DNA from: Bacillota bacterium
GTDB taxonomy: Bacteria; Bacillota; Clostridia; Christensenellales; JAEXRW01
NCBI GenBank assembly: GCA_023454175.1
Contig: JAEXRW010000037.1
Coordinates: 5,658-69,657 of the forward strand
Direction of reading: 5' to 3'
Length of the DNA stretch: 64,000 bases
Shown in pieces: positions 5,261 to 60,309 of the stretch. Each line of letters opens with the position of its first letter. Position 1 is the first letter of the stretch. Below the pieces are notes generated by a model. That model did no database searches. It saw nothing but the letters and a program-made list of their open reading frames with translations, and was not told where the DNA came from. Position numbers and translations under genes: made by a program.

Positions 5261-6292
5261 ATGAAAGCACTGATGAAAATGAGCCATGACGTGGGGGACG
5301 TCCATCTGCAGGACATCCCGGAGCCGGAATGCCGGCCGGGTATGGTAAAGGTCAAAATCAAGTACTGCGGTATCTGCGGGACGGATCTGCACATCTACCA
5401 CGATACATTCACGTATTACCCGCCGGTGATCATGGGGCACGAAATGTCGGGCACCGTTATTGAAACCGGTGAGGGCATCACGGACATCCAAAAAGGGGAC
5501 CGGGTGGCCATCCTGGGCTCGACGATGATCACATGCGGGACATGCGAATACTGCCGGGCGGGATACTACATGTTTTGCAAAACGCGGCGGGGGATGGGGC
5601 ACGGCACGCACGGGGGATTTACGGAGTACGTGGTGGTGCGGGAAGACCAGTGCTACAAACTGCCCGAAAACGTATCGTACGAGACGGGCGCGGTGATCGA
5701 AGCCTTCGCCACATCGGTGCAGGCAGTGGAGGAATTAATACCCTTCGGCCCGGGGGATACGGTATTGATCTCCGGCCCCGGACCCATCGGCCTGCTGACG
5801 CTGGCGCTGGTCGTGGCCCACGGGTGCAGGGTTATTGTTGCGGGAACGGCGAGCGACTCGAAACGGCTGGAGACCGCGCTGAAAATGGGCGCCGCGGCCA
5901 CCATCGACGTAGGGCAGCAGGACCTCGTTGAGACTGTAAAGACCCTGACGAACGGCAGGGGTGCTGACATCGCCATCGACTGCTCGGGCGCGGCGAAGTC
6001 CATCGACGCATGCCTTTCGGCGCTGCGCAACATGGGAACGCATATCCAGCTCGGCATCGCGGGGAAACCCATCACCATGGACTTTGACAAGACGATCTTC
6101 AAGCGGATCCAGGTATTCGGCTCGGTGGGGCATTCGCTGAAAACCTGGGACACGGCGATGCGCATCCTGGGGCAGAACAAGGTGGACCTGGGGCCCGTCA
6201 TCTCCCATATCATGCCGCTCGCCGAGTGGGAAAAGGCGTTTGACATGCTGGAGAAAAAGGATGCGCTGAAGATACTGCTTCAATGCAGTTGA
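5261..6292 (+). CDS. zinc-dependent alcohol/polyol dehydrogenase (MDR family, sorbitol/threonine dehydrogenase-like)
   Basis: ATG 5261. Motifs CGICGTDLH, GHEMSG, structural-Zn Cys cluster CGTCEYCRAGYYMFC, GPGPIG NAD fold. Confidence 0.85.
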   Translation: MKALMKMSHDVGDVHLQDIPEPECRPGMVKVKIKYCGICGTDLHIYHDTFTYYPPVIMGHEMSGTVIETGEGITDIQKGDRVAILGSTMITCGTCEYCRAGYYMFCKTRRGMGHGTHGGFTEYVVVREDQCYKLPENVSYETGAVIEAFATSVQAVEELIPFGPGDTVLISGPGPIGLLTLALVVAHGCRVIVAGTASDSKRLETALKMGAAATIDVGQQDLVETVKTLTNGRGADIAIDCSGAAKSIDACLSALRNMGTHIQLGIAGKPITMDFDKTIFKRIQVFGSVGHSLKTWDTAMRILGQNKVDLGPVISHIMPLAEWEKAFDMLEKKDALKILLQCS

Positions 6293-6363
6293 GAGTTGAT
6301 AGTTGAGAGTTGAGAGTTGCGGTAAGCCCCTCGGGCATGGATTATAAATTGGGGCACTGCCCC
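6287..6363 (+). repeat. stop-heptad array (AGTTGAG AGTTGAT AGTTGAG AGTTGAG AGTTGCG) plus hairpins GCCC-CTC-GGGC and GGGGC-ACT-GCCCC
   Basis: Five 7-nt units at 6287..6321. The ADH stop TGA (6290..6292) lies in unit 1. Hairpins at 6326..6336 and 6351..6363 flank ATTATAA. Confidence 0.85.
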
Positions 6364-6422
6364 ACACCCCGTTTCTTTTCTTGTAGAAAAGAAACAAAAG
6401 ACTTGCATAAGAGGTGAAGGAT

Positions 6423-7217
6423 ATGAGGCTGAAGGACAAGACCGTATTGATCACGGGGGCCAGCAAGGGGATCGGGAAGGCGCTGGCCATCGGGATGGCA
6501 AAGGAAGGCGCGGATATTATCATCAACTACAACAGCGACAAAAAGGGCGCGGAGGACACGAAGGCGGCCGTTGAGGCGCTGGGAAGAAAAGCGTGGATCG
6601 AGCAGTGTGACATCAGCAGCACGGACTCCATCTTTGCGATGTATAAACGCATCCAAACGTATACGAAGCAGATCGACGTGCTGGTGAACAACGCTGCCAT
6701 CACAGGGTGGGGGAAGGTATTCGAACTGACACCCGAAAAATGGGACTATGTGATCAACACGAACCTGCGGGGCACCTTTTTCTGCTCGGTGGAAGCCGCG
6801 AGGATGATGAAGGAGCACGGCGGCGGGTCCATCATCAACATCTCCACCAACTGCGCGGAGCTGGGCGTGAAGAACCTGGTGGCGTACTCCTCCAGCAAGG
6901 GCGGGGTGCACGCGATGACGAAGCAGCTGGCCATCGAACTGGCACAGTACAAAATACGCGTCAATACCTTTGCCCCGGGGCCCACGAACGTGGAGCGGAA
7001 CCTCTCGGACGACCCGGAATACCGGACGTCCTGGGGGAGCATGGTACCCATGAAGCGCACCGCGGACGCGGAAGAAATGGTGGGGCCGGCGGTATTCCTG
7101 GCATGCGAGGACTCCTCGTATATGACGGGGCAGGTCTTTTTCGTGGACGGAGGCTGGACGGTACAGGGCAAGATACCCGAGGCCAATGCCGAGATGGCGG
7201 CAAATAAGAACAAGTGA
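6423..7217 (+). CDS. SDR family oxidoreductase
   Basis: ATG 6423 follows GAGGTGAAGG. Motifs TGASKGIG, NNAA, and YSSSK of the catalytic tetrad. Confidence 0.85.
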   Translation: MRLKDKTVLITGASKGIGKALAIGMAKEGADIIINYNSDKKGAEDTKAAVEALGRKAWIEQCDISSTDSIFAMYKRIQTYTKQIDVLVNNAAITGWGKVFELTPEKWDYVINTNLRGTFFCSVEAARMMKEHGGGSIINISTNCAELGVKNLVAYSSSKGGVHAMTKQLAIELAQYKIRVNTFAPGPTNVERNLSDDPEYRTSWGSMVPMKRTADAEEMVGPAVFLACEDSSYMTGQVFFVDGGWTVQGKIPEANAEMAANKNK

Positions 7218-7233
7218 GGTAAGATCAAGGATC

Positions 7234-8064: not shown

Positions 8065-8065
8065 A

Positions 8066-8998
8066 ATGGCGGAATCAAACAGGACTGCATACGGAAGAGC
8101 GCTGGCCGAGCTGGCAGATATAGACCCGATGGTGGTGGCGCTGGACGGGGACGTTTCGGGCTCCACCAACACCATCCTGCTGGGGAAAAAATACCCCGAA
8201 CGCTTCTTCAATGTGGGGGTGGCGGAACAAAACGAGGTGGGCATCGCGGCGGGACTGGCCGTCTCGGGATTCAAACCCTATGTGAGCACGTTCGCGACAT
8301 TTGCGAGCATGCGCGCGTGCGACCAAGTACGGCAATCCCTGGCATATGGCAAACTGAATGTCAAAGTCGTTGCCACCAATGCGGGGATAGAGAACAACGG
8401 GGACGGCGTGACGCACCAGGCCATCGAGGATATCGCCATCATGCGGGCGATGCCAAACATGATGGTGGTATGCCCATCGGATCCTATTTCCACGCGCAAG
8501 GCCGTATTTGCCCTCTACAACACCACGGGGCCGGCATACATGCGGCTGGGGCGGTATGAAAGCGACGTCATCTACAACGAAGACATGGAATTCGAACTTG
8601 GCAAGATGATCCAATTACGTGAAGGCAATGACCTGACCCTCATCGCTACGGGCAGGATGGTATACGAGGGGGTAAAGGCGGCGGAGGAACTGGCCAGCAA
8701 AGGCATCCAGTGCAGGGTACTGGACTGCCACACGATCAAACCCATCGACCGGGAGGCCATCATCCGGGCCGCGAAAGAGACCAAAGGCATCATTACCATA
8801 GAAGACCACAGCATCATCGGCGGCCTGGGCGGCGCGGTATGCGAGGTGGTATGCGAAACATGTCCGACCAAAGTTGAGCGCATCGGCGTGCAGGATGTAT
8901 TCGCACGGTCATCCCGTGATTACCGTCAGCTGTACGAACGGTACGGGCTGACGGCGGCGCATATCGTGAAGAAAGCGCTGGAGATAGTTAATAGTTAA
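8066..8998 (+). CDS. transketolase, C-terminal subunit, copy 2
   Basis: ATG 8066 lies 1 nt after the upstream stop (TGAAATG). Motifs FNVGVAEQN, GVTHQAIEDIAIMRAMPNM. Confidence 0.85.
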   Translation: MAESNRTAYGRALAELADIDPMVVALDGDVSGSTNTILLGKKYPERFFNVGVAEQNEVGIAAGLAVSGFKPYVSTFATFASMRACDQVRQSLAYGKLNVKVVATNAGIENNGDGVTHQAIEDIAIMRAMPNMMVVCPSDPISTRKAVFALYNTTGPAYMRLGRYESDVIYNEDMEFELGKMIQLREGNDLTLIATGRMVYEGVKAAEELASKGIQCRVLDCHTIKPIDREAIIRAAKETKGIITIEDHSIIGGLGGAVCEVVCETCPTKVERIGVQDVFARSSRDYRQLYERYGLTAAHIVKKALEIVNS

Positions 8999-9037
8999 TA
9001 GTAATGCCTTCGGCATGATTATTAAACCCTGTGGGGT
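8986..9037 (+). repeat. stop-heptad array (AGTTAAT AGTTAAT AGTAATG) plus hairpins ATGCC-TTC-GGCAT and CCC-TGT-GGG
   Basis: The gene stop TAA 8996..8998 lies in unit 2, and the last codons (V N S) are encoded by the array. Hairpin at 9004..9016. Confidence 0.8.
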
Positions 9038-9228: not shown

Positions 9229-9888
9229 ATGAGGAAGTATTACGACATCACCGTGCCATACTGCAACGACATCCCGCGGTTCCCGAACGACAAGGTGAAC
9301 GTGACACGGATAGCGGACATGGAAAAGGGCGATCCGTACAACCAGTGGATCATCGAGTGCGGCACGCATACAGGGACGCACGTGGACGCGCCGAGGCACT
9401 TCATAAGGGACGGGAAGACCATCGAGCAGATCCCCTATGACCGGTTCCTGGGGGAGGCGAAGGTATTTGAAATACCGGGCAAGCGGGCCATCGAGGTGAC
9501 AGATATCCGGAACTTCGATATCCGGGAAGGGGACAGGGTCTTTCTCAAGACGTACAACTCAGAAACGATGCTGGAAGGGCAAAAGTTCCGCGAGGACTAT
9601 GCCTATGTGACACCGGAAGCGGCGCAGTACCTCGTCTCGAAAAAGATTCGGACGCTGGGCTTTGACTGGCTGGCGGTGGAGATGTACGGCAGCAAGGACT
9701 TCGGCGCGCACAAGGCGCTGCTGGGCGCGGAGGTCACCATCATCGAAGGATGCAGGTTGAAGGACGTGCCGCCCGGTACTTACGAGATGGTGGGGCTGCC
9801 CATCCAGATACCAGGCGGGAACGGAAGCCCGATAACCATTCTGCTCTTTGAGCAAGAGCAAAATCGTGAATTGAGAATTAATAGTTAA
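9229..9888 (+). CDS. cyclase family protein (kynurenine formamidase-like metal hydrolase)
   Basis: RBS GGAGGTGGGG. Signature HxGTHxDxPxH present as HTGTHVDAPRH. Confidence 0.75.
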   Translation: MRKYYDITVPYCNDIPRFPNDKVNVTRIADMEKGDPYNQWIIECGTHTGTHVDAPRHFIRDGKTIEQIPYDRFLGEAKVFEIPGKRAIEVTDIRNFDIREGDRVFLKTYNSETMLEGQKFREDYAYVTPEAAQYLVSKKIRTLGFDWLAVEMYGSKDFGAHKALLGAEVTIIEGCRLKDVPPGTYEMVGLPIQIPGGNGSPITILLFEQEQNRELRINS

Positions 9889-10001
9889 GAATTAAGAATT
9901 TTGGTGAGCCCTGCGGGGAAATTATATTGGCCTGCGGGGAATTAAGTTGATAGTTGAGAGTTGTGGTGAGCCCTTCGGGGATATTATATGACCCTGCGGG
10001 T
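9869..10001 (+). repeat. two tandem stop-heptad/hairpin units
   Basis: Array 1 at 9869..9903 (AATTGAG AATTAAT AGTTAAG AATTAAG AATTTTG), then hairpins near 9909 and 9931. Array 2 at 9945..9965 (AGTTGAT AGTTGAG AGTTGTG), then hairpins near 9971 and 9991. The cyclase stop TAA 9886..9888 lies in unit 3. Confidence 0.85.
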
Positions 10002-21672: not shown

Positions 21673-22722
21673 ATGATAACGAACAACCGGAGGTTAGGAG
21701 ATTTGAGCAAGAAAACGGTATCCATCTGCCTGATCGGCGCCGGCCGGGCGGGTATGATCCACGCAAGGAACTACAAGAACATGGTACCGGGCGCGCGGAT
21801 AGCCGCAGTGGCGGATCCATTTGAAGAGGCGTGCAAAAAGGCGTGCGAAGAGCTGGAGATCGACCGATATTACCTGGATTACAGGGAAGTATTGAAACAG
21901 GCGGATATCGACGCCGTGGTGGTCGTATCCCCCACCAAGTACCACCGGGACATCGTGGTGGACGCAGCGGATGCGGGCAAGCATATCCTGTGCGAAAAAC
22001 CCATGGCGATGAATGAAAAAGAATGCGAAGAGATGATCGAAGCCGCCGAACGCAACCATGTAAAGCTGCAGCTGGGATTCATGCGGCGCTTCGACGAAAG
22101 CTTTGCGGAAGCTAAAAAGGCAATCGACTCCGGGGCTATCGGGGCAGTGGTGGAGATCCGCTCCGTCACAAGGGGCCCATCCAAACCCCAGGAATGGATG
22201 TACGACATCGAGAAGAGCAACGGGCCGCTGGCCGAGGTGAACAGCCACGATATCGACTGCATCCGGTGGCTGGCGGGGAGCGAACTGGAACACGTATACG
22301 CCATCGGCGGGAACTACCGGAACCCTGAGATCAAGGCGCAATGGCCGGATTTCTATGACAATGTGGTGCTCTCGGGCCGGTTCAAAAACGGCATAACAGC
22401 CGTGATCGAGGGCGCTCAATATGTGAAATACGGCTATGACGCACACGTGGAGGTGCTGGGGACGGACGGCGTGATCCATATCGGCAGAAACGACGCATAC
22501 GGCTACCATGTGACCACGAAAGAACTGGGGACGCATACGCCTTTTATCTCCAGCTGGACGACGCTATTCAAAGACGCGTATTTGGCGGAGGACAAGCACT
22601 TCGTGGACTGCATCCTGAACGACAAGACGCCGAGTGTGACCGGGACAGACGGAAAGATGGCCGTCAAAATCGTTAATGCGGGGAACACATCCATTAAAAC
22701 GGGTACAATCGTCAGACTATAA
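21673..22722 (+). CDS. Gfo/Idh/MocA family oxidoreductase (inositol 2-dehydrogenase-like)
   Basis: Motifs IGAGRAG, ILCEKPMA. An alternative TTG start at 21703 follows GGAGGTTAGGAG. Divergent from the DeoR gene. Confidence 0.8.
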   Translation: MITNNRRLGDLSKKTVSICLIGAGRAGMIHARNYKNMVPGARIAAVADPFEEACKKACEELEIDRYYLDYREVLKQADIDAVVVVSPTKYHRDIVVDAADAGKHILCEKPMAMNEKECEEMIEAAERNHVKLQLGFMRRFDESFAEAKKAIDSGAIGAVVEIRSVTRGPSKPQEWMYDIEKSNGPLAEVNSHDIDCIRWLAGSELEHVYAIGGNYRNPEIKAQWPDFYDNVVLSGRFKNGITAVIEGAQYVKYGYDAHVEVLGTDGVIHIGRNDAYGYHVTTKELGTHTPFISSWTTLFKDAYLAEDKHFVDCILNDKTPSVTGTDGKMAVKIVNAGNTSIKTGTIVRL

Positions 22723-22788
22723 ATTAAGAATTAATAATTAATAATTGCGGTATGCCTCCGGCATGATTCTAATATAATGCCGCGGGCA
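22720..22788 (+). repeat. stop-heptad array (AATTAAG AATTAAT AATTAAT AATTGCG) plus hairpins ATGCC-TCC-GGCAT and TGCC-GCG-GGCA
   Basis: The gene stop TAA 22720..22722 abuts unit 1. Units at 22722..22749, hairpins at 22752..22764 and 22778..22788. Confidence 0.85.
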
Positions 22789-31015: not shown

Positions 31016-31405
31016 ATGAAGATACAAGGCTTTAACCATATCGGCATCAACATCACGGACATCGAAAAGTCCCTGGCATTTTACCGCGACGTATTAAAGG
31101 CAAACGTGCAGTTCTCGGCCAAAATGGACGATTGCACCATCACCTACCTGCTGCTTCCCAGCGGGGAGCGCATCGAGCTTTTTGACTATTACGGAAAAAA
31201 CAAAACGAACCCGCCCGAGGAGAGCCAGGCGGGCTACCGCCATATCGCCATTCAGGTGGATGATACCGATGCGTGGGAGGAATGGCTGAGGCAGAATGAG
31301 GTACCCATCGTACTGGCCTCGACGGATATCGCGGCGCTGCACGTGCGCGTGCTGCTTTTCAAGGACCCGGACGGGACGGTGCTGGAATTCTGCAAACCGA
31401 TTTAG
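31016..31405 (+). CDS. VOC family protein (glyoxalase/bleomycin resistance/dioxygenase fold)
   Basis: 129 aa with NHIGINITDIEKSLAFY and HIAIQVDD motifs. Confidence 0.75.
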   Translation: MKIQGFNHIGINITDIEKSLAFYRDVLKANVQFSAKMDDCTITYLLLPSGERIELFDYYGKNKTNPPEESQAGYRHIAIQVDDTDAWEEWLRQNEVPIVLASTDIAALHVRVLLFKDPDGTVLEFCKPI

Positions 31406-31408: not shown

Positions 31409-31501
31409 AGTTGAGAGTTGACAGTTGAGAGTTGCGGAATGCCCTTCGGGCATGGACCCCATGAGTTGATAGTTAAGAGCTGAGGGGTGCCCTTCGGGCA
31501 T
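31409..31501 (+). repeat. two tandem stop-heptad/hairpin units
   Basis: AGTTGAG AGTTGAC AGTTGAG AGTTGCG then ATGCCC-TTC-GGGCAT (31439..31453). Next AGTTGAT AGTTAAG AGCTGAG then TGCCC-TTC-GGGCA (31488..31500). Starts 4 nt after stop 31405. Confidence 0.85.
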
Positions 31502-34520: not shown

Positions 34521-35846
34521 ATGAAAACAAGATTATTGCCACTTTATTTTTCCGAGACAAACGACCGTGAACGCGACGAATTCGCCGCGCAGATGGCGAG
34601 GCTCAAAGAGTATTACGGTGACTGCGCGGAATTCTTGGACCCGGTATGCATCGGGGAGAAGATCCCTGAGGCTGACGCCGTGGTATTCCCGCAGTTGATA
34701 TTCCAGGCATTCCGGCAGGCAGACATACTGAAGAGGATCAAACTCCCGATGATCGTACTGACCTCACGCTTCGGGACGGTGGAGATGTGGGACTGGGAGA
34801 TCATCACATACCTGCGGGACGAGGGCCTGACAATATTTTCTCCATACAACATCGAACTGGCCAAGACCATCATACGGGCCGTAGGCGTGAAGAAAATGCT
34901 GAACGGCGCGAAATTCCTGATGATGCAGGACAGCCCGGGCGAGGGCATGCAGGCCAACATCTTCAAACGCTTTTACTGGTGGGAGAAGGAATGCTCGGAG
35001 AACATGGAAAAGGTCTTCGGCATCAAGATCATCTACAGGAGCTGGAAGGAAGTATCGGACAAGGCCGCCAGGATCACGGACGATGCGGCGCGGGAAGCGG
35101 CCAAAGATTGGGACGTGTGCAAGGAAGGCGTGTGCGAAGCCAATTACCTGAAGGCCGTGAAGATATACATGGGCGTGAAGGACGTCATCAACGAGATCGG
35201 CGGGGTGCAGGGCGTGGGCAGCAACTGCCTGAACGAATCCTTCAACTGCTTTACCACACCCTGCCTGGCATGGAACATGATCTTTGAAAAGGATGACATC
35301 ATCTGGGCGTGCGAAGGGGACACCGTATCCCTTTTGACGAAATTCATCCTGTACCGCTCGCTCAAATCCCCCATCATGATGACCAACATCTACCCCTTCC
35401 TGGTGGGGATGGCGGCGCTGGCCCATGAAAAGATCGATAAATTCCCCGACATCAAAGATCCCGACAACCATGCGCTGGGCGTGCACTGCGGCTATTTCGG
35501 GCTGGCACCGCAGTCTTTCTGCACCGAATGGACGCTGCGGCCCAAAGTGCTGGGAATCGTGGACGACAACGCAATCGCAGTGGACTGCCGGATGGCGACG
35601 GGGAAGGCGACGCTGGCCAAGGTATTCCCGAGCTTCAAGAAGATATTGATCGTATCGGCGGAGATCGAGGATTATGTGCAATACCCCGGATCGGACTGCA
35701 GGAACGGCGCGCTGATCCGCTACAACGACGGGCACAGGGTGATGGAGAGCTTCAGCTCCCACCATATCCTGATCCTGACAGGGGACAAGAAGCCGGAACT
35801 CATCCAGCTGGCAAAGGTATTTGGGTGGGAAGTAGAAGCGATCTAA
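34521..35846 (+). CDS. hypothetical protein, possible distant L-fucose/L-arabinose isomerase superfamily member
   Basis: Clean 441-aa ORF with RBS GAAAGGAAG. The weak family call rests only on size, context and a C-terminal SSHH motif reminiscent of FucI/AraA C-terminal domains. Confidence 0.45.
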   Translation: MKTRLLPLYFSETNDRERDEFAAQMARLKEYYGDCAEFLDPVCIGEKIPEADAVVFPQLIFQAFRQADILKRIKLPMIVLTSRFGTVEMWDWEIITYLRDEGLTIFSPYNIELAKTIIRAVGVKKMLNGAKFLMMQDSPGEGMQANIFKRFYWWEKECSENMEKVFGIKIIYRSWKEVSDKAARITDDAAREAAKDWDVCKEGVCEANYLKAVKIYMGVKDVINEIGGVQGVGSNCLNESFNCFTTPCLAWNMIFEKDDIIWACEGDTVSLLTKFILYRSLKSPIMMTNIYPFLVGMAALAHEKIDKFPDIKDPDNHALGVHCGYFGLAPQSFCTEWTLRPKVLGIVDDNAIAVDCRMATGKATLAKVFPSFKKILIVSAEIEDYVQYPGSDCRNGALIRYNDGHRVMESFSSHHILILTGDKKPELIQLAKVFGWEVEAI

Positions 35847-35912
35847 TAATTAATAATTAAGAGTTAAGAATTAAGAATTGAGGTGTCAAGGGCGAATCAT
35901 AATTCGCCCTTG
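35844..35912 (+). repeat. stop-heptad array (AATTAAT AATTAAG AGTTAAG AATTAAG AATTGAG) plus 11-bp hairpin CAAGGGCGAAT/ATTCGCCCTTG
   Basis: The gene stop TAA 35844..35846 starts the array. Hairpin 35887..35912 checked by hand. Confidence 0.85.
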
Positions 35913-36054
35913 GACAATCCATATGCGCTTCGCGGCAACGGTTCAAACCACCGCAGGCGGCAAAACAAAATGGGCTGCCGGCAAACAGCAGCCCTACGGG
36001 TATGATACAGACTGTTGCAGATAATAACAGAAGATTTATGGAGGCAATTCAAAC

Positions 36055-36693
36055 ATGCATGAAATGATCGAGAAACTGGCCAAATATGTACTGGTCCCTG
36101 TTATCAAGATAGACCGGGTGGAGGACGCCGTGCCGCTGTGCAGGACATTGAAGGAGGGCGGGCTGCCGGTGGCGGAGATCACATTTCGTACGGACGCCGC
36201 CGAGGAATCCATCCGCAGGGTGAACAAGGAATACCCCGATATCCTGCTGGGCGCGGGCACGGTATTAACCGTGGACCAAGTCAAAAGGGCAGTTGATGCA
36301 GGCGCGGGATACATCATCTCTCCCGGCTTTTCGCGCAGTGTCGTGGAATACTGCGGAAAAAACAACATCGCCGTGACGCCCGGCGCCATTACGCCCACCG
36401 AGATCCAGTACCTGATCGAATACGGGCTGGACGTGGCGAAATTTTTCCCGGCGGAGCAGGCGGGCGGCGTGAATATGATCAAGGCCCTGGCCGCACCCTT
36501 CCCGCAGATGAAATTCATTCCCACGGGCGGCATCAGCGCGAAGAACGTGCTGGATTACCTGGCATTCAAAAAGGTGGTCGCATGCGGCGGGAGCTGGATG
36601 GTGAAGGACGACCTGATCAAGGCCGGAGAATTTGACAAGATACGGGAACTGGTTGTCGAGGCGGTCAAACTGGTCAAATCAATTGACAATTGA
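36055..36693 (+). CDS. eda: 2-dehydro-3-deoxyphosphogluconate / 4-hydroxy-2-oxoglutarate aldolase
   Basis: 212 aa with VPVIKI, AEITFRT, GAGTV and FIPTGGIS motifs of the KDPG aldolase family. Confidence 0.85.
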   Translation: MHEMIEKLAKYVLVPVIKIDRVEDAVPLCRTLKEGGLPVAEITFRTDAAEESIRRVNKEYPDILLGAGTVLTVDQVKRAVDAGAGYIISPGFSRSVVEYCGKNNIAVTPGAITPTEIQYLIEYGLDVAKFFPAEQAGGVNMIKALAAPFPQMKFIPTGGISAKNVLDYLAFKKVVACGGSWMVKDDLIKAGEFDKIRELVVEAVKLVKSIDN

Positions 36694-36776
36694 CAATTGA
36701 CAATTGACAATGAAGGTAAGCCCTGCAGAGGATTTAATAATTAAGAATTAAGAATTTTGATGAGCCCTGCGGGGAA
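36681..36776 (+). repeat. two tandem stop-heptad/hairpin units
   Basis: AATTGAC x4 plus AATGAAG (36681..36715), with the eda stop TGA 36691..36693 inside unit 2. Then ATTTAAT AATTAAG AATTAAG AATTTTG (36732..36759) and CCC-TGC-GGG at 36765..36774. Confidence 0.85.
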
Positions 36777-39382: not shown

Positions 39383-39417
39383 AAAAGCGGGGAACGATAA
39401 TCCCCGCTTTTGGTTTT
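39383..39417. terminator. bidirectional rho-independent terminator
   Basis: 10-bp stem AAAAGCGGGG/CCCCGCTTTT with flanking T run, between convergent genes. Confidence 0.7.
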
Positions 39418-39541
39418 ACATGGCCTTATCCTTAGCGCGCCGGCATGCAGTGCACAAAAATATTCTATATATATGATACATTATAACTCGGATAGACAGG
39501 TCCCGGACGTAAGCGAGCAGCCAGGGCAACTGTTTATCAGA

Positions 39542-40879: not shown

Positions 40880-40998
40880 TACGACCTCCGGTTTTTATAT
40901 TACATTTATTATACCACATTCAAAAAACCCTATAAAAGACCGGTCTGGCGGGGCAATGGCGGACATGATATGATGCAGATGAATACGGGGTGACAAAC

Positions 40999-42089: not shown

Positions 42090-42215
42090 AATGTATAATG
42101 TATAATGAAGGTATGCCTTCGGCATAATCAGGATACCCTCGGGGGAAACCCCTCAAGGCAGAACGACCCCTTAAAGGGCCGCTCGGATGCCAGATCCCCG
42201 ATCTGGGGCGCCATC
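42090..42215 (+). repeat. degenerate heptad array (AATGTAT AATGTAT AATGAAG) plus ATGCC-TTC-GGCAT and a run of further short hairpins
   Basis: Hairpin 42113..42125 is identical to that at 9004..9016. AATGAAGGTA(T/A)GCC matches 36709..36722. Further stems: GGGG-AAA-CCCC, CCCT-TAA-AGGG, CAGATC-CCC-GATCTG. Confidence 0.65.
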
Positions 42216-49476: not shown

Positions 49477-50538
49477 GTGGAGGCTCGAAAATCAAGAAAA
49501 ACAGCTTTGGTGGTCGTAAGCATGCTGCTGGTGCTGCTGGTGGTGGCGGCCGGACTGGTCGTCTATTTCATGATCACCAGATACCAGTACCTGGGCGATA
49601 ACCCGATGAGCGCATTCCTGGGCGGCGGCAGCTGCGCTGCGAAGACGGACGAACTGGCAAAAGCCACACCGCAGGGACCGCAACTGAAAACAGGACCCAC
49701 GTCTGCCCCCAAAAAGACCGCGCCGAAGGGCAGCATCAACGTGATGCTGATGGGGATGGACAATGACTCGGAGCGCGACAAGAGCAGCATGGGTTCTCGC
49801 AACGACATGAACATGGTGCTGAATATCGACTTTGACAAGAAGACTGCACGGATGATAGTGATCCCGCGCGACTCCCGCGTCAAGGTATCCAAGGTAAACG
49901 ACTCCGGGAAGGTAACCGGATACACAGACGACAGGATCAATACGGCGTATGCGGACGGCGGATATGAGGACGGCTATGGATTTCAGAACGTGATGCACGT
50001 AACCTCCACATTCCTCTCCTGCAACGGGACGTATGACATCCCCATCGACTACTATGTGAGCATCAACCTGGACGGCATCGAACCCATCTGCAACGCGGTG
50101 GGCGGCGTGCCCCTAAAACTGGACAAGGATTTCCCGGGGCTGAAATGGAAAGCGGGGCAGACCGTGATCATCAAGGGTGAAGTGGCGCAGATGTACCTGC
50201 GCTGGCGCCACCCCGACCAGACGGGGGATAACCTGGGCGACATCGGCAGGGGGGAACGGCAGCAGAAATTCCTCATCGCCCTGGCCAAGAAAATCAAATC
50301 CATGGGGCCGGTGGAGACCGTACAGAAGTTATTTAACAGCATGCAGAAATACATGCGTACGAACATGAGCCTGGACCAGATCGTGGCCCTGGCGCAGGTG
50401 CTGAAGGGCATGAACGTGGACAGCATCGAGATGTATTCGGCACCGGGGAAGAACGCCAGCTATGACGGCGCATCGATGTGGGCGCCGGATATGAAGAAAC
50501 TGCCGGATGTTGTGGAAAAGGTATTCTATGCAAATTAA
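49477..50538 (+). CDS. LCP (LytR-CpsA-Psr) family protein, paralogue
   Basis: GTG start. Same architecture and shared blocks (VMLMGMD, RNDMNMVLNID, IPRDS, LRWRH, GDIGRG.RQQ.FL.ALAKKIK). Confidence 0.8.
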   Translation: MEARKSRKTALVVVSMLLVLLVVAAGLVVYFMITRYQYLGDNPMSAFLGGGSCAAKTDELAKATPQGPQLKTGPTSAPKKTAPKGSINVMLMGMDNDSERDKSSMGSRNDMNMVLNIDFDKKTARMIVIPRDSRVKVSKVNDSGKVTGYTDDRINTAYADGGYEDGYGFQNVMHVTSTFLSCNGTYDIPIDYYVSINLDGIEPICNAVGGVPLKLDKDFPGLKWKAGQTVIIKGEVAQMYLRWRHPDQTGDNLGDIGRGERQQKFLIALAKKIKSMGPVETVQKLFNSMQKYMRTNMSLDQIVALAQVLKGMNVDSIEMYSAPGKNASYDGASMWAPDMKKLPDVVEKVFYAN

Positions 50539-50583
50539 TAATTAATAATTAAGAATTAATAATTGTGGTAGGCCCCGCGGGGG
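50533..50583 (+). repeat. stop-heptad array (AATTAAT AATTAAT AATTAAG AATTAAT AATTGTG) plus GGCCCCGCGGGGG
   Basis: The LCP stop TAA 50536..50538 lies in unit 1. Units at 50533..50567. Confidence 0.85.
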
Positions 50584-54830: not shown

Positions 54831-54852
54831 GGAGCGGAAAATAACATAATTG

Positions 54853-54958
54853 CCTTATCAAGAGTGGTAGAGGGACGGGCCCGATGATACCCGGCAACCT
54901 TCCCAGCAATGGGAGCAAGGTGCCAAATCCCGCAGGCTGTGAACCTGGCAGATGAGGC
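54853..54958 (+). promoter_or_regulatory. SAM-I (S-box) riboswitch
   Basis: CTTATCAAGAG..GGTAGAGGGACGGGCCCGATGATACCCGGCAACC...GGTGCCAAATCC...AGATGAGG matches the S-box consensus. It sits upstream of metK. Confidence 0.85.
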
Positions 54959-54985
54959 GTATTTGAAACAAACTTCAAATACATG

Positions 54986-55026
54986 CGCCCGGGCCTGCCA
55001 ATATGGGAACCCGGGCGTTACTATTT
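54986..55026 (+). terminator. riboswitch expression-platform terminator
   Basis: Stem CGCCCGGG/CCCGGGCG followed by the T-rich TTACTATTT, just before the metK RBS. Confidence 0.6.
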
Positions 55027-55052
55027 ATATGAACAACGGAGGAACCAGAAAA

Positions 55053-56225
55053 ATGAGCAGGAACTTTCTTTTCACGTCGGAATCCGTCACCGAGGGACAC
55101 CCGGACAAACTCTGCGACGCCATCGCAGACAGCATACTGGACCAGATCCTGAGCGAGGACAAAAAGGCGCGCGTGGCGTGCGAAGTGACGGCCACGACAG
55201 GCCTCGTCATGGTAATGGGCGAGATCACGACGGAATGCTACGCCGACATCCCCAGCCTGGTGCGCAAGAAGGTGGACGAGATCGGCTACACGCGGGCAAA
55301 GTACGGCTTTGACGCGGAGACGTGCGGTGTGATCACCAGCATCAAGGAACAATCCCCCGATATCGCCCAGGGCGTGAACGAGGCCCTGGAGACGCGGGGC
55401 ACGGCCGCCCATACGCTGGGCGCGGGGGACCAGGGGATGATGTTCGGATTTGCCTGCAGCGAGACACCGCAATTGATGCCCCTTCCCATCACACTGGCCC
55501 ACGACCTGGCCAAACGGCTGGCGGCGGTGCGCAAGGAAGGGCTGCTGGCCTACCTGCGGCCCGACGGCAAAACGCAGGTCACCGTCCGCTATGAAAACGA
55601 CAAGCCGGTAGCGATCGACAGCATCACGGTATCGGCCCAGCACCACCCCGAGGTGGAGCAGAGCCAGATCCGCGAGGATATCATCAAACACGTGATCCTG
55701 CCAACCATCCCCGGCAAGCTGCTATTGCCTGAAACACGGTACCTCGTCAACCCGACGGGACGATTCGTGACGGGCGGGCCGCACGGGGACACCGGACTGA
55801 CCGGCCGCAAGATCATCGTGGACACCTACGGCGGGTATGCGCGGCACGGGGGCGGCTCTTTTTCGGGCAAGGATCCCACGAAGGTGGACCGGAGCGCGGC
55901 ATATGCTGCACGGCATGCGGCGAAAAACATCGTGGCGGCGGGCCTGGCCGAGAAGTGCGAAGTGGAACTGGCATACGTAATCGGCGTGGCGCGCCCGCAA
56001 TCCATCATGGTGGACACCTTCGGTACGGGGAAGATCAAGGACAGCCGCATCACCGAGCTGGTGGAAAAACACTTTGACCTGACGCCGGGCGGCATCATCC
56101 AACGCTTTGACCTGATGCGGCCCATCTATTCGCAAATCTCCGCATACGGCCATTTCGGGCGGCCGGAACTGGATCTGCCCTGGGAAAAGACGGACGAAGC
56201 CGCCCTGCTGGCAAAGGACGCCTAA
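55053..56225 (+). CDS. metK: S-adenosylmethionine synthetase
   Basis: ATG 55053 follows GGAGGAA. Motifs [28 protein letters not shown]. Confidence 0.95.
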
Positions 56226-56231: not shown

Positions 56232-58397
56232 ATGGAGCAATTGAACGGAAGCGTGGAAAGGATCATCTACCGCAGCGCGTCCGACGGATGGACCGTGATG
56301 GAATTCACGTGCGAAGAAGGCAAGATCACGGCTGTGGGCAAGATGCCTTTTCTTTCAGAGGGGGAAAGTGCGAGCCTTTCGGGGGAGTGGGTGAACCACG
56401 CCAGCTACGGAAGGCAATTCCGCGTTGATTCCTTTGAAAGCACGGCGCCACAGGGCGCGGAGGCTATCCGCAGATACCTGGCCAGCGGGGCTGTGAAGGG
56501 AATCGGCCCCGTGACGGCGGACGCCATCGTGGCGGCATTCGGCACGGATTCGCTGGATATCCTGCAATTCGCCCCCATCCGGCTGACGGAGATCTACGGC
56601 ATCGGGGAAAAGCGGGCGGAGATGATCGCACGGTCCTTCGCCGAGCAGGCGGGGACGCGGCGGGTGATGATGGGGCTGCAGGGCTTCGGCATCACGCTGA
56701 ACCAGGCACAAAAGATTTATAAATTATATGGAGAAGACGCGCTCCGGACCGTCCAGGAGGACCCATATCGGCTCATTGACGACGTATGGGGCATCGGCTT
56801 CAAGACGGCGGACCGGATCGCCCGGGCGGCGGGGGTGGAGGAATCCTCCCCTTTCCGGGTGCGGGCGGGCATCAAATATGTACTGAGCGAAGGGCTGGGC
56901 GAGGGGCACACGCACCTGCCCTATGAAAAGCTGGTGGAGCTCTGCGTGAGCTCGCTGGGGCTGGAAACGGCGCTGGTGGAGCGGGAGCTCCAGAAGCTGG
57001 CATTTGAACACCAGGTCAAGCTCCTGGAGACGGCGGCACAGACATGCGTATACCTGGAATACGTGTATACCATCGAAAATGACGTGGCGCGAAGGCTGTA
57101 CATGCTCTCACGGTACAACGCACAACCCCTCCAAATCATCGAAAACATGGACGACTCCTCCCTCGAGCTCTCGGGACAGCAGATGGAGGCCGTGCAACAG
57201 GCCTGCACGAGCCAGCTGCTCGTCATCACGGGAGGGCCGGGCACCGGGAAAACCACGATACTGAAAAAGATCATCGAACTGTATGACCAGGCGAGACTGC
57301 CCTGCGAACTGGCGGCGCCCACGGGACGGGCGGCCAAGCGCATGAGCGAAGCATCGGGGAAAGATGCGCGCACCATCCACCGGTTACTTGAATACGCATG
57401 GAGCGAGCAGGGGGAGGGGTATTTCGGGCGGAACGAGGACAACCCGCTGGACACGGCCGCCGTCATCCTGGACGAAACATCCATGCTGGACCTTTTCCTG
57501 CTGTACCGCGTATTGAAGGCATTAAAGAAGGGCACACGCCTCGTACTCGTGGGAGACGCGGACCAGCTGCCCTCCCTGGGACCGGGAAACGTACTGCGTG
57601 ACATCATCGAGAGCGGCGCGGCGCCGTGCATCCGGCTGACCGAAGTCTTCCGCCAGGAGGGGGAGAGCGGGATCGTGGTGAACGCCCACCGCATCAACGA
57701 GGGAACAGAGCCGGTATTTGCCCAGGATGGGGACTTCGTATTCCTTCCGCGGGACCCGGAGGGGACGAAAAAGACGGTGCTGGAACTGGCATTACGTGCA
57801 AAGGGGAATGCGCAGGTGCTCACGCCGATGCGGAAAGTCGACCTCGGCGTCATCCCGATGAACGGCATATTGCAGCAGGCCATGAACCCCCCCGCGCCGG
57901 GCAAGGCGGAACTCCAGATCGGGCAGACGGTCTTCCGCGAGGGGGACAAGGTGATGCAGATCAAAAACAACTATAAACAGGAATGGTTCCGCGAGGGGCC
58001 CCTGTGCAGCGAGCAGGGGACGGGCGTCTTCAACGGGGACATGGGAATATTAAAGAAAATAGACCATGAAGAGGAGAAGGCGCTGGTGGAGATGGATGAC
58101 GGGCGGAGCGTGTGCTACGACTTCTCCACGATGGACGAGGTGGAGCTGGCCTACGCGATATCGGTCCACAAGAGCCAGGGCAGCGAATTTGACACCGTCA
58201 TCATGCCTGTCTACGGCGGGCCGCCGATGCTGATGACGCGGAACATGCTGTACACCGCCGTTACAAGGGCGAAAAAGAAGGTGTACCTGGTGGGGAAGAT
58301 GTATTCCCTGAACAGCATGATCCAAAACAACCGGACTTCCAACCGGTATACCAATCTGGAATACCGGCTGCGGATACTGACGGATACGTTGGATTAG
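56232..58397 (+). CDS. recD2: ATP-dependent RecD-like DNA helicase (SF1B, RecD2/YrrC type)
   Basis: 721 aa with Walker A GGPGTGKTT, DETSM, and a C-terminal SVHKSQGSE motif. Confidence 0.9.
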   Translation: MEQLNGSVERIIYRSASDGWTVMEFTCEEGKITAVGKMPFLSEGESASLSGEWVNHASYGRQFRVDSFESTAPQGAEAIRRYLASGAVKGIGPVTADAIVAAFGTDSLDILQFAPIRLTEIYGIGEKRAEMIARSFAEQAGTRRVMMGLQGFGITLNQAQKIYKLYGEDALRTVQEDPYRLIDDVWGIGFKTADRIARAAGVEESSPFRVRAGIKYVLSEGLGEGHTHLPYEKLVELCVSSLGLETALVERELQKLAFEHQVKLLETAAQTCVYLEYVYTIENDVARRLYMLSRYNAQPLQIIENMDDSSLELSGQQMEAVQQACTSQLLVITGGPGTGKTTILKKIIELYDQARLPCELAAPTGRAAKRMSEASGKDARTIHRLLEYAWSEQGEGYFGRNEDNPLDTAAVILDETSMLDLFLLYRVLKALKKGTRLVLVGDADQLPSLGPGNVLRDIIESGAAPCIRLTEVFRQEGESGIVVNAHRINEGTEPVFAQDGDFVFLPRDPEGTKKTVLELALRAKGNAQVLTPMRKVDLGVIPMNGILQQAMNPPAPGKAELQIGQTVFREGDKVMQIKNNYKQEWFREGPLCSEQGTGVFNGDMGILKKIDHEEEKALVEMDDGRSVCYDFSTMDEVELAYAISVHKSQGSEFDTVIMPVYGGPPMLMTRNMLYTAVTRAKKKVYLVGKMYSLNSMIQNNRTSNRYTNLEYRLRILTDTLD

Positions 58398-58445
58398 TTG
58401 AGAGTTGAAAGTTGAAAGTGGAGAGTTGCGGTTAGCCTTGCGAGA
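58396..58445 (+). repeat. stop-heptad array (AGTTGAG AGTTGAA AGTTGAA AGTGGAG AGTTGCG) plus degenerate hairpin
   Basis: The recD2 stop TAG 58395..58397 overlaps unit 1. Units at 58396..58430. Confidence 0.8.
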
Positions 58446-58459
58446 TTAAATAGTAGTAG

Positions 58460-58546: not shown

Positions 58547-58650
58547 GAATCTAGATAAACCATCTGCAAAAAATCAGGTGGTTTTATTTAATTGCCAGGG
58601 GGTGGGAAGACATGTAGAATATGGGTAAGTCCTTCAAGGGGGTGCAGGAA

Positions 58651-59559
58651 ATGAATGCGACCAAAAGAGTTATGGCGTTTATCACACTGGCGATGGCGGC
58701 TGTTTTGATCACTGCTTGCACAAACACAAGTGTTGCCGTGATACCATCAATGCCAGAAGCAAGCGTAACACAGCCTGTGACTGCCACACCAACCCCTAGT
58801 CCAACGGCAGTAAAATCTACAATGATCACATCCATCGACGTGCTGCTGGAGTATGAGGGAGAATCCGACCCGATCTTCTTCACCCTGAGTGGAGAGGATA
58901 CGGAGTTCGTACAGAATGCACTGCAAGGCGGCGAGCAGATGAAGGGTACGGTAACGCACGCGCCGGTGGTGCATTACCTTTACATCCATTATGCAGACAG
59001 GAACGAGGACGGCGTGCTGTGGCTGCCATACAAGGAAAGCAGATACGTATTTGAAAACGGGGCGGGGGTACAGTACAGGCTGGAAGAAGGACAAACCGCC
59101 AAACTTCAGGCGTTCCTGAAAACCGCATCGAATGCAAAAGCGGGAAAGGATGCCAAGGCAAGGGAGAAACTAAAAAGCATCGCAACTGACATCCAGAAAC
59201 TATTTGAACAATCGGGAACCAAGGTGATCATGGATACGGAAGGGAACGGTTACGGCGTAATCCCCCTCTACCGGGCGCTGTTGCCCTTTGCTGATTCAGT
59301 CTGGGGAAAAGGTATAGAATATGAAAGCGGTTTTGTATCGTGGCTGATATTCAGAATCAAAGACGGAATGAAGAGCGACGACGTGGCCCGCGAAATTCCG
59401 GGACGCAACTGGCATTACAAGTATTTGGAAACAAGAGGACTCAAGGAACCGGTCTTTGCAGTTTATGGAGAGTATAGCGCCATCATCCATGCAACGAGCC
59501 TAGAAGGAGCAAACAAGGCAGCAGGGGTTATCCAAAAGATATTAGAAGAAGACGATTAA
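58651..59559 (+). CDS. hypothetical lipoprotein
   Basis: ATG 58651 follows AAGGGGG. Signal peptide with lipobox LITAC. No recognisable domain. Confidence 0.6.
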   Translation: MNATKRVMAFITLAMAAVLITACTNTSVAVIPSMPEASVTQPVTATPTPSPTAVKSTMITSIDVLLEYEGESDPIFFTLSGEDTEFVQNALQGGEQMKGTVTHAPVVHYLYIHYADRNEDGVLWLPYKESRYVFENGAGVQYRLEEGQTAKLQAFLKTASNAKAGKDAKAREKLKSIATDIQKLFEQSGTKVIMDTEGNGYGVIPLYRALLPFADSVWGKGIEYESGFVSWLIFRIKDGMKSDDVAREIPGRNWHYKYLETRGLKEPVFAVYGEYSAIIHATSLEGANKAAGVIQKILEEDD

Positions 59560-59604
59560 TATCTCGATTCAGCCCTGGGCATTGACTGTATTGGAGAAAA
59601 TGCC

Positions 59605-60264
59605 ATGAATATTCACGATGTGTTGCATGGTCTGGGGGATATCATTTTCCCACCCGACGCGAGCTGCTCCATCTGCCGCGGGGAAAAGGGCATGATGCGC
59701 GGGTACGGCATCTGCGCGGACTGCCATGCATGCCTGGCCTTCAAGGGGCAGCCGGATACCGCATGGACGCTGCCTTTCATCCCGGCGCTGCACTATGACG
59801 GGGCGGGGGCGCGGATGATCCAACGATTGAAATACGAAGGGCAGCGGTACATTGCGCGGACGCTGGGGCGGCTGATGGCAGACGCATACAACCAAAACGA
59901 GTGGGCCCTCCCCGACCTGCTGGTCCCCGTGCCGCTGCACCCCAAACGCAGGCGGAAGCGGGGATACAACCAATCCGACCTGCTGTGCCGGGAGCTATCG
60001 GCCATCCTGACGGCGCCATATGACGAAAAGGCATTAACACGTATCCGGAACACGCGGACACAGACGGGGCTGAACCGTGAGGAGCGGCTGGAGAACATGG
60101 ACGGCGCATTCACGCTGGGAAAAGGATTCGACCCTGCCGGTATGCGGATCCTGCTCATAGACGACGTATGCACGACGGGCGCGACGCTCTACGAATGCGC
60201 GAAGGTGCTGCTGGGCAGCGGCGCGGAAGACGTGCGGGCGCTGGTGGCGGCACACGGAGGATAG
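59605..60264 (+). CDS. comFC: ComF family protein (amidophosphoribosyltransferase-like, ComFC)
   Basis: N-terminal double CxxC finger (CSIC...CADC) and PRTase motif LLIDDVCTTGATL. Confidence 0.8.
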   Translation: MNIHDVLHGLGDIIFPPDASCSICRGEKGMMRGYGICADCHACLAFKGQPDTAWTLPFIPALHYDGAGARMIQRLKYEGQRYIARTLGRLMADAYNQNEWALPDLLVPVPLHPKRRRKRGYNQSDLLCRELSAILTAPYDEKALTRIRNTRTQTGLNREERLENMDGAFTLGKGFDPAGMRILLIDDVCTTGATLYECAKVLLGSGAEDVRALVAAHGG

Positions 60265-60309
60265 TTGACAGTTGAAAGTTGAGAGTTGACAGTTGCCCTG
60301 CGGGGGCTG
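60263..60309 (+). repeat. stop-heptad array (AGTTGAC AGTTGAA AGTTGAG AGTTGAC AGTTGCC) plus GCCC-TGCGG-GGGC hairpin
   Basis: The comFC stop TAG 60262..60264 overlaps unit 1. Units at 60263..60297. Confidence 0.85.

Follow-up and report, generated by a model that had tools for sequence, protein, structure and literature searches.

A repeat family joining heptamer arrays to short hairpins at gene stop codons in Clostridia and Bacteroidota

Interspersed intergenic repeats have been well studied in Proteobacteria, in the form of the repetitive extragenic palindromic (REP), BIME and REPIN-RAYT systems (Bertels and Rainey 2011, PMC3116915; PMC3337134), and are almost uncharted in the dominant gut phyla. 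A second kind of intergenic repeat, consisting of direct copies of the heptamer TAACTGA, has been described in marine Beggiatoaceae, Cyanobacteria and some Bacteroidetes, and a single-strand-binding-protein regulon has been proposed for it (MacGregor 2015, PMC4679880). Here we analyse a 64-kb stretch of DNA from a Bacillota bacterium of the Clostridia (GenBank assembly GCA_023454175.1, contig JAEXRW010000037.1, positions 5,658 to 69,657 of the forward strand), hereafter the window, in which many genes end at tandem heptamer arrays that run into small GC-rich hairpins. An earlier note on this DNA had listed eleven such sites and suggested that they might act as translation barriers or insulators, as stabilisers of mRNA 3′ ends, or as non-autonomous mobile elements. 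We find that these modules are members of a genuine family of interspersed repeats, one that is statistically well supported, spans two phyla and is tied to the stop codons of genes.

Each module is about 40-80 nt long. It begins at the 5′ end with a tandem array of 2-6 heptads (consensus ARTTRAN, TAATTGA-type), which passes through a junction, ARTT-KY-GG(T), into a short, GC-rich hairpin whose loop is 3 nt long; the next 10-14 nt are an AT-rich linker, and in many cases another small hairpin comes after it. The decay of the last unit to TTGCG, TTGTG or TTTTG, as first described, is real and belongs to this conserved junction. Tandem Repeats Finder recovered period-7 arrays on the + strand at all 11 sites named earlier and added two more, at 9945 and 36734. 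Three extra arrays (9940-9966, 31464-31487 and 36736-36762) represent second modules in direct tandem with a first, giving a total of 14 modules in the window, all 14 on the + strand, including the degenerate AATGTAT array at 42090. A regular expression for two or more copies of NRTTRAN identified 13 arrays on the + strand, and on the − strand only self-complementary AATTAAT cases, where Markov shuffles predict about 1.3 matches for both strands together; the composite pattern ARTTRANARTTRANARTTKYGGTRNGCC matched five times in the window against an expectation of 0.00. Only singlets and direct tandems were found here, with no inverted arrays or inverted doublets in the window, and the ~9 kb of source contig on each side (~18 kb) held no further modules and no transposase. 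The module cores include two sub-families, one shared by modules 3, 4 and 10 and another by modules 2, 5 and 11 (numbering as in Table 1). Modules 3 and 10 are identical at 35 of the first 37 aligned bases, spanning array, junction and hairpin.

The modules are co-oriented with the upstream gene and lie at its stop codon. At nine of the 11 sites named earlier the gene does end in or at the array, as had been claimed, with a stop in the list of open reading frames (ORFs) that falls inside the array, overlaps it or touches its first bases (stops at 6292, 8998, 9888, 22722, 35846, 36693, 50538, 58397 and 60264); at the other two, gaps of 3 nt (31409) and 17 nt (42090) intervene. To count such links across the family, we scored arrays for a co-directional ORF of at least 80 codons whose end falls no more than 10 nt upstream of the start of the array and no more than 21 nt inside it. 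This was the case for 9/9 window arrays of at least three units and for 42/74 arrays in other genomes, compared with 6-10% of random positions, so that the association with stop codons holds family-wide. ORFs come into the arrays in all three frames and stop at whichever in-frame TGA or TAA comes first, acquiring array-encoded tails of 1-6 residues. The stop was located in unit 1, 2 or 3 in 13, 14 and 8 cases, a near-equal distribution which indicates that the use of array stops is frame-independent. In agreement with the all-frame stops described in the earlier note, 10 of the 14 window arrays carry stops in the three forward frames, and the remaining four, all short, carry them in two. TRA is not, as had been thought, an invariant core of the unit: AGTGGAG (58396) and AATGTAT (42090) lack or shift it, and the stop-free unit AATGGAA accounts for ~10% of forward units in other genomes. 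Many housekeeping genes take their stop codon from the module itself, and the genes that adjoin modules have unrelated functions.

The hairpin, too, is a conserved part of the module. Across 68 aligned modules, double changes were seen in five of the six stem pairs of the first hairpin, and 32 compensatory cells were counted against 9.1 +/- 2.4 in shuffles, a value reached in 0/500 of them. Furthermore, among 50 copies with canonical geometry there were 24 U.G pairs to 2 A.C/C.A, which indicates that it is the array strand that folds. The hairpin is therefore maintained by compensatory change and folds on the array strand. The window hairpins are weaker than the earlier note described. When stems were scored by direct reading, seven of 14 were 4-13 bp long; five, of the CCC-TGC-GGG type, reach only 3 bp, and two, at 36720 and 58435, are broken. 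Six window copies have another small hairpin, 21-27 nt beyond the first. None of the module hairpins on the + strand of the window reaches at least 5 T in 8 nt and none qualifies in a terminator scan, which bears out the earlier statements that no U tract follows and that these are not classical intrinsic terminators. Most window modules lie between co-directional genes. In other genomes the same junction can lead into a U tract or a full intrinsic terminator (loci L015, L018, L029 and L011).

To determine how widely the family is spread, the composite pattern was scanned over one genome per GTDB species, a collection from which the source organism is absent. This yielded 64 loci, 43 in Bacteroidota, 20 in Clostridia and one in a marine gammaproteobacterium, where ~0.3 chance matches were expected (an estimate that sets the ~42 bits of the pattern against the size of the collection). 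Tidjanibacter contributed 37 of the loci and other Bacteroidales (Rikenellaceae, Alistipes, Parabacteroides and one unclassified) six; the Clostridia hits come from Oscillospiraceae, Acutalibacteraceae, Ruminococcus, Ruminiclostridium, Lachnospiraceae and unclassified members; the gammaproteobacterial match lacks the hairpin and is probably due to chance. The family is not private to the source genome, as might have been gathered from the earlier note. It is found in two phyla, in gut Clostridia and in Bacteroidota of the Rikenellaceae type, and outside the window some of its members are followed by a U tract or by a full terminator. At the same time, three controls show it to be lineage-restricted. 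No arrays were found in 387 kb around aldolase homologues of other Clostridia (JGI metagenomes; best homologue 65% identical), which served as a negative control, or in L130, the 18-kb syntenic locus of a relative whose RecD2 is 64% identical to that of the source (the closest relative has 90% identity and the next ones at most 51%), and the composite pattern had no match in IMG/VR viral contigs. The last result also led us to reject a phage origin.

Copies in these genomes point to common descent. Of 104 distinct arrays of at least three units (loci and window together), about two-thirds run into an ARTTnnGG junction and a hairpin. Five loci of a single Tidjanibacter metagenome-assembled genome (MAG; L010, L020, L028, L035 and L048) share a near-identical core of ~45 nt within unrelated flanks, and many Clostridia copies have an irregular unit, AATGTAC or AATGTAT, in one and the same position, which favours common descent over purely local slippage. 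This bears on the idea that each array is a microsatellite grown by slippage beside a pre-existing hairpin, independently at each locus, with neither shared ancestry nor mobility. It is true that the units of one locus are homogenised and that orthologous arrays differ by whole units, and among long simple repeats those of heptanucleotides are given as the most frequent in several prokaryotes (Mrazek 2007, quoted in PMC4679880). Independent growth would, however, leave unaccounted for the same ARTT-KY-GGTG junction and hairpin type after arrays in two phyla, the recurrent irregular unit, the near-identical sub-family cores at distant loci and the orthologous sites, described below, that lack array and hairpin alike; we regard it as extremely improbable.

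Within the heptad, positions A1, T3, T4 and A6 are conserved across the two phyla, while positions 2, 5 and 7 vary freely. Arrays can also stand without a hairpin. In Parabacteroides distasonis (L131; NZ_OY725751.1, 1502-1540) a bare five-unit array forms the entire spacer between the TGA of a DUF3298 gene and the ATG of rsmG in the RefSeq annotation, and on a Planktothrix agardhii plasmid (L132; AP017993.1, 1463-1539) a bare array of ~11 units ATCAATT/GTCAATT lies directly upstream of hsdR, with arrays of the type (ATCAATT/GTCAATT)n on other cyanobacterial plasmids as well. The heptad arrays may alternatively be iterated sites for a single-strand nucleic-acid-binding protein with a ~7-nt footprint (cold-shock-domain, S1-like or similar), which would define a post-transcriptional or translational regulon and leave the hairpin merely to delimit the site. 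The period of 7, the four positions conserved across phyla, the conservation of arrays between species and the Parabacteroides spacer are all compatible with this proposal, as is a unit one base away from TAACTGA, for which the same has been suggested (PMC4679880). Yet no candidate protein was identified, the adjacent genes are functionally unrelated, the unit sequence varies freely at three positions and differs between orthologous sites, and copy number shifts by slippage, and we consider the proposal quite improbable.

Outside the window the modules often form tail-to-tail doublets, of which fifteen were examined in other genomes. In these the two arrays are reverse complements and the pair fills the gap between the stop codon of one gene and the ribosome-binding site of the next, co-directional one; the inverted module lies antisense and upstream of a start codon. 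RNAfold predicts a long stem with a three-way junction for these doublets, at -33 to -70 kcal/mol. One could imagine that the doublet is the functional unit, folded as one long RNA hairpin with the arrays as its stem, and that it is either a structured RNA, or a substrate of RNase III, or a device for translational coupling in which the upstream stop is brought close to the downstream start, the window copies being its half-decayed remnants; the stop-to-start placement would suit such a role. However, the complementarity of the arms is no higher within a locus (0.786) than between loci (0.791) and G.U and A.C mismatches are balanced (23 and 20), from which we conclude that arm pairing is not selected, and the doublet arms were rejected as a selected stem. 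Some doublets, such as L027, also pair poorly, and the window has no inverted arrays at all, making this reading very improbable. The unit is instead the single oriented module, and doublets resemble REPIN-like pairs. Tidjanibacter intergenic DNA contains further repeats in addition to the modules: heptad arrays of (GTCGACC)n and (GTCTAAC)n, the latter also followed by GGTG and a hairpin, CCCCTCTAAGTTAGAGGGGG palindromes, (AGCAGAAAG)n and a recurrent GGGTATTAAAAAAGATACCC hairpin, which together form BIME-like mosaics (for example L004 5640-5680, L033 3140-3200, L055 4740-4800, L025 6240-6270 and L006 2931-2965).

Presence/absence polymorphism at orthologous loci, for which the earlier note had proposed to look, was found among related species. 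The module at 50533, after the LytR-family gene, has an empty counterpart in the sister species (L129), where TAG is followed by 38 nt and the same terminator. Those at 58396 (RecD2) and 60263 (ComF-like) are missing from L130, with protein lengths equal within 1 aa. In L024 a doublet sits right after TAA and 7 nt before ATG, where L032 has TAA, 9 nt and ATG; in L038 a protein ending ...GEN-stop uses a TGA in unit 1, where L034 has ...GDR-stop followed by 20 nt, at equal protein length. The empty sites lack both array and hairpin, and gene order is unchanged. Where both species carry a module, orthologous arrays differ by exact 7-nt insertions or deletions, as expected of slippage, and at the aldolase-PTE junction the sister species carries an array of a different flavour, indicating turnover. 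Insertion polymorphism, identical copies within a genome, 7-nt slippage of arrays and a cross-phylum distribution are thus observed features of the family. Two sister-species contigs (Logan SRR29758288) begin or end inside heptad arrays (L129 10904-10933 and L133 1-31). Because the arrays fragment short-read assemblies in this way, module counts in MAGs are underestimates.

Taken together, these data point to a duplicative, non-autonomous repeat of the REP/BIME/MITE type that survives at the 3′ ends of genes because an ORF that becomes fused to its leading array suffers no harm, a reading to which we give about an even chance of being right. Of the three roles first suggested, the non-autonomous mobile element that lands harmlessly on gene ends fits best, on account of the filled and empty orthologous sites, the identical cores within a genome and the frame-independent array stops; the translation barrier or insulator and mRNA-stabiliser roles are plausible. 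Under the mobile-repeat reading, the leading array would end translation within at most 6 codons in any frame, so that a copy could fuse to or replace a gene's stop codon without damage to the protein or read-through. Since translation stops there in any frame, the space at a stop codon would be where copies survive, and a functionless spacer between stop and array would be free to be deleted. The module would be co-transcribed, with the array keeping ribosomes off the hairpin, which probably acts in mRNA, as a 3′ stabiliser or a processing barrier; joined to a U tract, which many copies in Tidjanibacter and some in Clostridia possess, it would be a terminator. As for the agent of spread, our leading guess is a trans-acting HUH/Y1 enzyme (RAYT or IS200-like) that uses the lagging-strand template in its single-stranded state; alternatively, copies may spread when arrays recombine or when the template is switched between them.

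A number of observations weigh against this mobile-repeat reading. Orthologous modules are at least as well conserved as their coding flanks (94% identity against 84-88%, 95% against 83-88% and 96% against 88-89%), and the RecD2 array differs at only 1 of 30 comparable bases between the source and the sister species, which are 77% identical, which speaks for host-level constraint or gene conversion and not for neutral junk. The window modules abut the stop codon even where 100-400 nt of spacer follows, so simple tolerance is not a full explanation. (We had also considered that tight operons force the abutment, an insertion being safe only in the few nt that separate a stop codon from the following ribosome-binding site, and rejected this: it would fit the Tidjanibacter empty sites, with their 9-20 nt spacers, but not the window, where 100-400 nt follow most modules.) Several window hairpins are 3 bp or broken, making an RNA role for these copies doubtful. 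Nor can the strand data decide at which level the hairpin acts: because transcription and replication are co-directional here, neither the 14:0 strand bias nor the U.G asymmetry can separate RNA from single-stranded DNA. The window is 53.8% G+C, with G > C and A > T along the entire + strand, a GC skew that is positive throughout and nearly all long ORFs on the + strand, and its array strand is the sense strand of the mRNA and, to judge from the skew, also the template of lagging-strand synthesis.

Searches for a mobilising enzyme belong to the same side of the balance. In the module-bearing loci (~0.6 Mb of scattered loci), tblastn with an IS200 TnpA query gave no match, and a Pfam scan of 89 ORFs beside arrays returned housekeeping families only, with no transposase or integrase. 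No target-site duplication was seen in the clean filled/empty pair L024/L032, and no terminal inverted repeats were found, the singlets being without inverted ends. Other mobile systems were set aside on the anatomy of the modules. Integron attC sites were rejected, as the RYYYAAC ... GTTRRRY core sites do not occur in the window modules on direct reading, and an integron cassette likewise, the flanking genes (RecD2, ComF-like and MetK) being syntenic housekeeping genes in relatives without the module, and no genome-wide search for an integrase being made; CRISPR was dismissed on anatomy. A 117-aa ORF lies between two inverted modules in one Tidjanibacter (L050 4401-4751, − strand). On a reading of its sequence it resembles a four-helix-bundle protein of the 23S rRNA intervening-sequence type. 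Its orthologous site in a different species (L003, ~3143-3321) keeps only a 3′ remnant, and its sole homologue among the fetched loci is in L083. As a general partner of the modules it was rejected, because it occurs between inverted modules in this one case only.

The main rival reading takes the modules to be host-selected mRNA punctuation. Here the array would act as an all-frame ribosome barrier that ensures termination, and as a spacer protecting the downstream hairpin from being melted by ribosomes, frameshifted or read-through ones included. An AU-rich, G-containing single strand with a hairpin after it is also the kind of target that RNase Y-type endonucleases cleave. A cut at this point would give the downstream cistron a protective hairpin at its 5′ end, and the outcome would be differential stability or partial termination between cistrons. 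RNase Y reportedly prefers downstream structure, as work on the S. aureus sae operon is said to have found. In support of punctuation one can cite orthologous modules whose conservation equals or exceeds that of the coding flanks, a compensatory change in one hairpin between L007 and L008, the covariation and U.G pairs on the sense strand, the strict co-orientation and stop-codon abutment, and the U tracts or full terminators that follow the same junction elsewhere. What it explains poorly is a patchy distribution among close relatives, with empty sites in an unchanged gene order, the rapid turnover of array flavour at an orthologous site, the many window hairpins that are marginal or broken, and the inverted modules of doublets, which make no sense as punctuation when they lie antisense upstream of start codons. 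We consider host-selected punctuation possible, if rather doubtful.

A bolder proposal would make the modules the footprint of an undescribed, stop-codon-directed mobility or maintenance system of gut Bacteroidota and Clostridia, or else a termination-coupled RNA device. In the first form, a trans-acting enzyme may target or cut the iterated TTGAN/TTAAN heptads, or may generate them by copying a template; this enzyme may be an HUH/Y1 nuclease or a reverse-transcriptase-like enzyme and may place copies precisely at stop codons, and the TAACTGA repeats known from Beggiatoaceae and Cyanobacteria may be related to the system. In the second, the ribosome reaching the array may control the fate of the downstream hairpin. 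Either form, if true, would constitute a new class of stop-codon-associated element with a junction and hairpin kept across phyla, and we think it unlikely that one of the two is correct.

The 14 window modules are listed in Table 1. Their arrays lie ~50-430 nt from the next start codon.

Table 1. Modules of the 64-kb window (window coordinates) with the genes that end at them
Module	Position	Strand	Array	First hairpin	Linker and second hairpin	Gene and stop codon
1	6287..6363	+	(AGTTGAG/T)x4 + AGTTGCGG, 6287-6322	GCCC-CTC-GGGC, 6326-6336	AT-rich linker; GGGGCA-C-TGCCCC, 6351-6363	Zn-dehydrogenase-like ORF 5174-6292; stop is TGA of unit 1
2	8986..9036	+	AGTTAAT x2 + AGTA, 8986-9003	ATGCC-TTC-GGCAT, 9004-9016	GATTATTAAA; hairpin 9027-9036	Transketolase C-subunit ORF 8066-8998; stop is TAA of unit 2
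3	9869..9939	+	4 units + AATTTTGG, 9869-9904	(G)CCC-TGC-GGG(G), 9908-9918	AAATTATATT; GGCCTGCGGGG, 9929-9939	Cyclase ORF 9229-9888; stop in unit 3, final 6 residues array-encoded
4	9940..10001	+	AATTAAG-TTGAT-AGTTGAG-AGTTGTGG, 9940-9966; direct tandem with module 3	GCCC-TTC-GGGG, 9970-9980	hairpin 9991-10001	
5	22720..22787	+	AATTAAG/AATTAAT x3 + AATTGCGG, to 22750	ATGCC-TCC-GGCAT, 22752-22764	linker; GCC-GCG-GGC, 22779-22787	IolG-like ORF 21673-22722; TAA stop, then array; next gene starts ~20 nt after module
6	31409..31453	+	AGTTGAG/AGTTGAC x3 + AGTTGCGG, 31409-31437	ATGCCC-TTC-GGGCAT, 31439-31453		Upstream ORF 31016-31405; stop 3 nt 5′ of array
7	31464..31500	+	AGTTGAT AGTTAAG AGCTGAGGGG; direct tandem with module 6	TGCCC-TTC-GGGCA, 31488-31500		
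8	35844..35915	+	5 units (AATTAAT ... AATTGAGG), to 35883	atypical, 13 bp: GTCAAGGGCGAAT-CATA-ATTCGCCCTTGGAC, 35885-35915		ORF 34521-35846; TAA stop, then array
9	36681..36731	+	AATTGAC x4 + AATGAAGG, 36681-36716	degenerate: GCCCTGCAGAGG, 36720-36731		KDPG-aldolase ORF 36055-36693; stop in unit 2, array-encoded tail IDN
10	36736..36774	+	AATTAAG x2 + AATTTTGATG; direct tandem with module 9	(G)CCC-TGC-GGG(G), 36764-36774		
11	42090..42145	+	degenerate, AATGTAT x2 + AATGAAGG, 42090-42111	TATGCC-TTC-GGCATA, 42112-42126	CCC-TCG-GGGG, 42136-42145	MtnA ORF 40990-42072; stop 17 nt upstream of array
12	50533..50583	+	AATTAAT/AATTAAG x4 + AATTGTGG, 50533-50568	small, within GCCCCGCGGGGG, 50572-50583	canonical terminator ~40 nt further on	LytR-family ORF 49477-50538; stop is TAA of unit 1
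13	58396..58444	+	AGTTGAG AGTTGAA AGTTGAA AGTGGAG AGTTGCGG, 58396-58431	degenerate: GCCTTGCGAG		RecD2; stop TAG 58395-58397 overlaps first 2 array bases
14	60263..60304	+	AGTTGAC/A/G x4 + AGTTG, 60263-60295	CCC-TGC-GGG, 60296-60304; array leads straight in		ComF-like ORF 59605-60264; stop TAG overlaps array start

Several further features of the region were recorded along the way. A raiA RNA (RF03072, 182 bits) lies downstream of the last module at 61580-61876 (+), and a SAM-I riboswitch at 54852-54958 (+) ahead of the S-adenosylmethionine synthetase gene (54909-56225); both RNAs, like the relatives of the proteins, point to Clostridia. ORF 14536-15552 contains, close to its 5′ end, 2.6 copies of a 24-nt tandem repeat (GCTCCCACAACAGCCCCCACGACC, 14608-14669, +), which probably codes for a low-complexity linker rich in Ala, Pro and Thr. 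A perfect 11-bp hairpin with an A-run and a T-run at its sides (AAAAGCGGGGAACGATAATCCCCGCTTTT, 39383-39411), located between ORF 38410-39363 and ORF 39410-40864, was called by the terminator scan on both strands. The arrays use mostly UGA and UAA stops, and a gene for a peptide-chain release factor (PCRF and RF-1 domains, called at 325 aa) is present ~5 kb past the 3′ end of the window (L135 16119-17096).

The module joins a microsatellite-like array to a palindrome in a form common to Clostridia and Bacteroidota, and it ties in with the TAACTGA heptamer repeats found in other phyla, themselves a puzzle. If mobile, it shows how all-frame stops make insertion at gene ends harmless; if functional, it would be a widespread operon punctuation signal whose expression effects could be tuned by 7-nt slippage. 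In practical terms, the arrays break short-read assemblies and add tails of 1-6 residues to annotated proteins.

How new is this architecture? The earlier note could match it to no known element, and this holds in so far as the module is absent from Rfam 15 and the searchable literature. At gathering score, the window and 18 loci gave only raiA, SAM, tmRNA, lysine and TPP hits, none at modules; in E-value mode, two full doublets gave only generic miRNA-precursor hairpin noise far below threshold; and string searches of the literature with array sequences gave unrelated primer matches only. The heptamer array, on the other hand, has a precedent.

The TAACTGA/TAATTGA heptamer repeats are the closest described relatives of the arrays. 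They share a 7-nt unit in 2-6 tandem copies, an almost always intergenic location, stops in all three forward frames, an overlap of only a few codons with ORF ends, 7-nt indels between strains and a patchy cross-phylum distribution that includes Bacteroidetes (PMC4679880). Written in the phase of the modules, (TAACTGA)n is (AACTGAT)n, one base from ARTTRAN, and TAATTGA, which is AATTGAT in that phase, is listed among them as a rare variant (PMC4679880). A bare array ending at ATG, as seen here in Parabacteroides distasonis, is known from BOGUAY. The module units AGTTGAN, AATTAAN and AATTGAC are, however, not TAACTGA. Furthermore, the TAACTGA repeats lie mostly one to a few nt upstream of start codons, whereas the window modules lie at stop codons; their unit is nearly invariant; and neither a junction with a GC hairpin, nor inverted doublets, nor an occurrence in Clostridia has been reported for them.

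Other tandem or hairpin elements are less similar in anatomy. Like the modules, the STRR heptanucleotide repeats of cyanobacteria are tandem heptamers in intergenic DNA. They are said (Mazel, 1990) to have other unit sequences and arrays that can be much longer, and we know of no hairpin module or stop-codon placement described for them. Intrinsic terminators also place a GC hairpin soon after a gene end, but the stems of the window modules are mostly 3-6 bp and have no U tract. Bacterial miniature inverted-repeat transposable elements (MITEs) such as Correia/NEMIS, RUP, BOX and ERIC are likewise non-autonomous, intergenic, often co-transcribed and polymorphic for presence, and can alter mRNA processing; the modules differ in having neither defined terminal inverted repeats nor a target-site duplication, their ends being variable-length arrays, in the strict gene orientation of singlets, and in showing no sequence similarity to these four.

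The second part of the module finds its counterpart in the REP/BIME/REPIN systems. The earlier note had seen no likeness to REP or BIME, yet the way in which the modules occur, singly, as inverted doublets and in mosaic clusters, follows the pattern of REP, BIME and REPIN elements. REP-type repeats are also short, GC-rich imperfect palindromes with compensatory changes (PMC3116915, PMC3337134). They are extragenic, mostly just 3′ of genes and within operons; they occur as singlets, as inverted doublets that can fold into a long hairpin and as mosaic clusters; and they are present in many near-identical copies per genome, kept across species, with no internal transposase. Liang, Rudd and Deutscher reportedly found in 2015 that REPs stabilise upstream mRNA and that those at most ~15 nt from a stop codon affect translation. 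The differences are that REPs carry a GTAG-type 5′ tetranucleotide, while the modules have the junction ARTT-KY-GG(T) and no GTAG; that no tandem heptad array precedes the REP palindrome; that REP hosts are Proteobacteria and module hosts Clostridia and Bacteroidota; and that, unlike in REPIN-RAYT systems, no RAYT gene was found in the module-bearing DNA examined. On this comparison of sequence and layout, the modules are best described as REP-like palindromic repeats fused to TAACTGA-like heptamer arrays.

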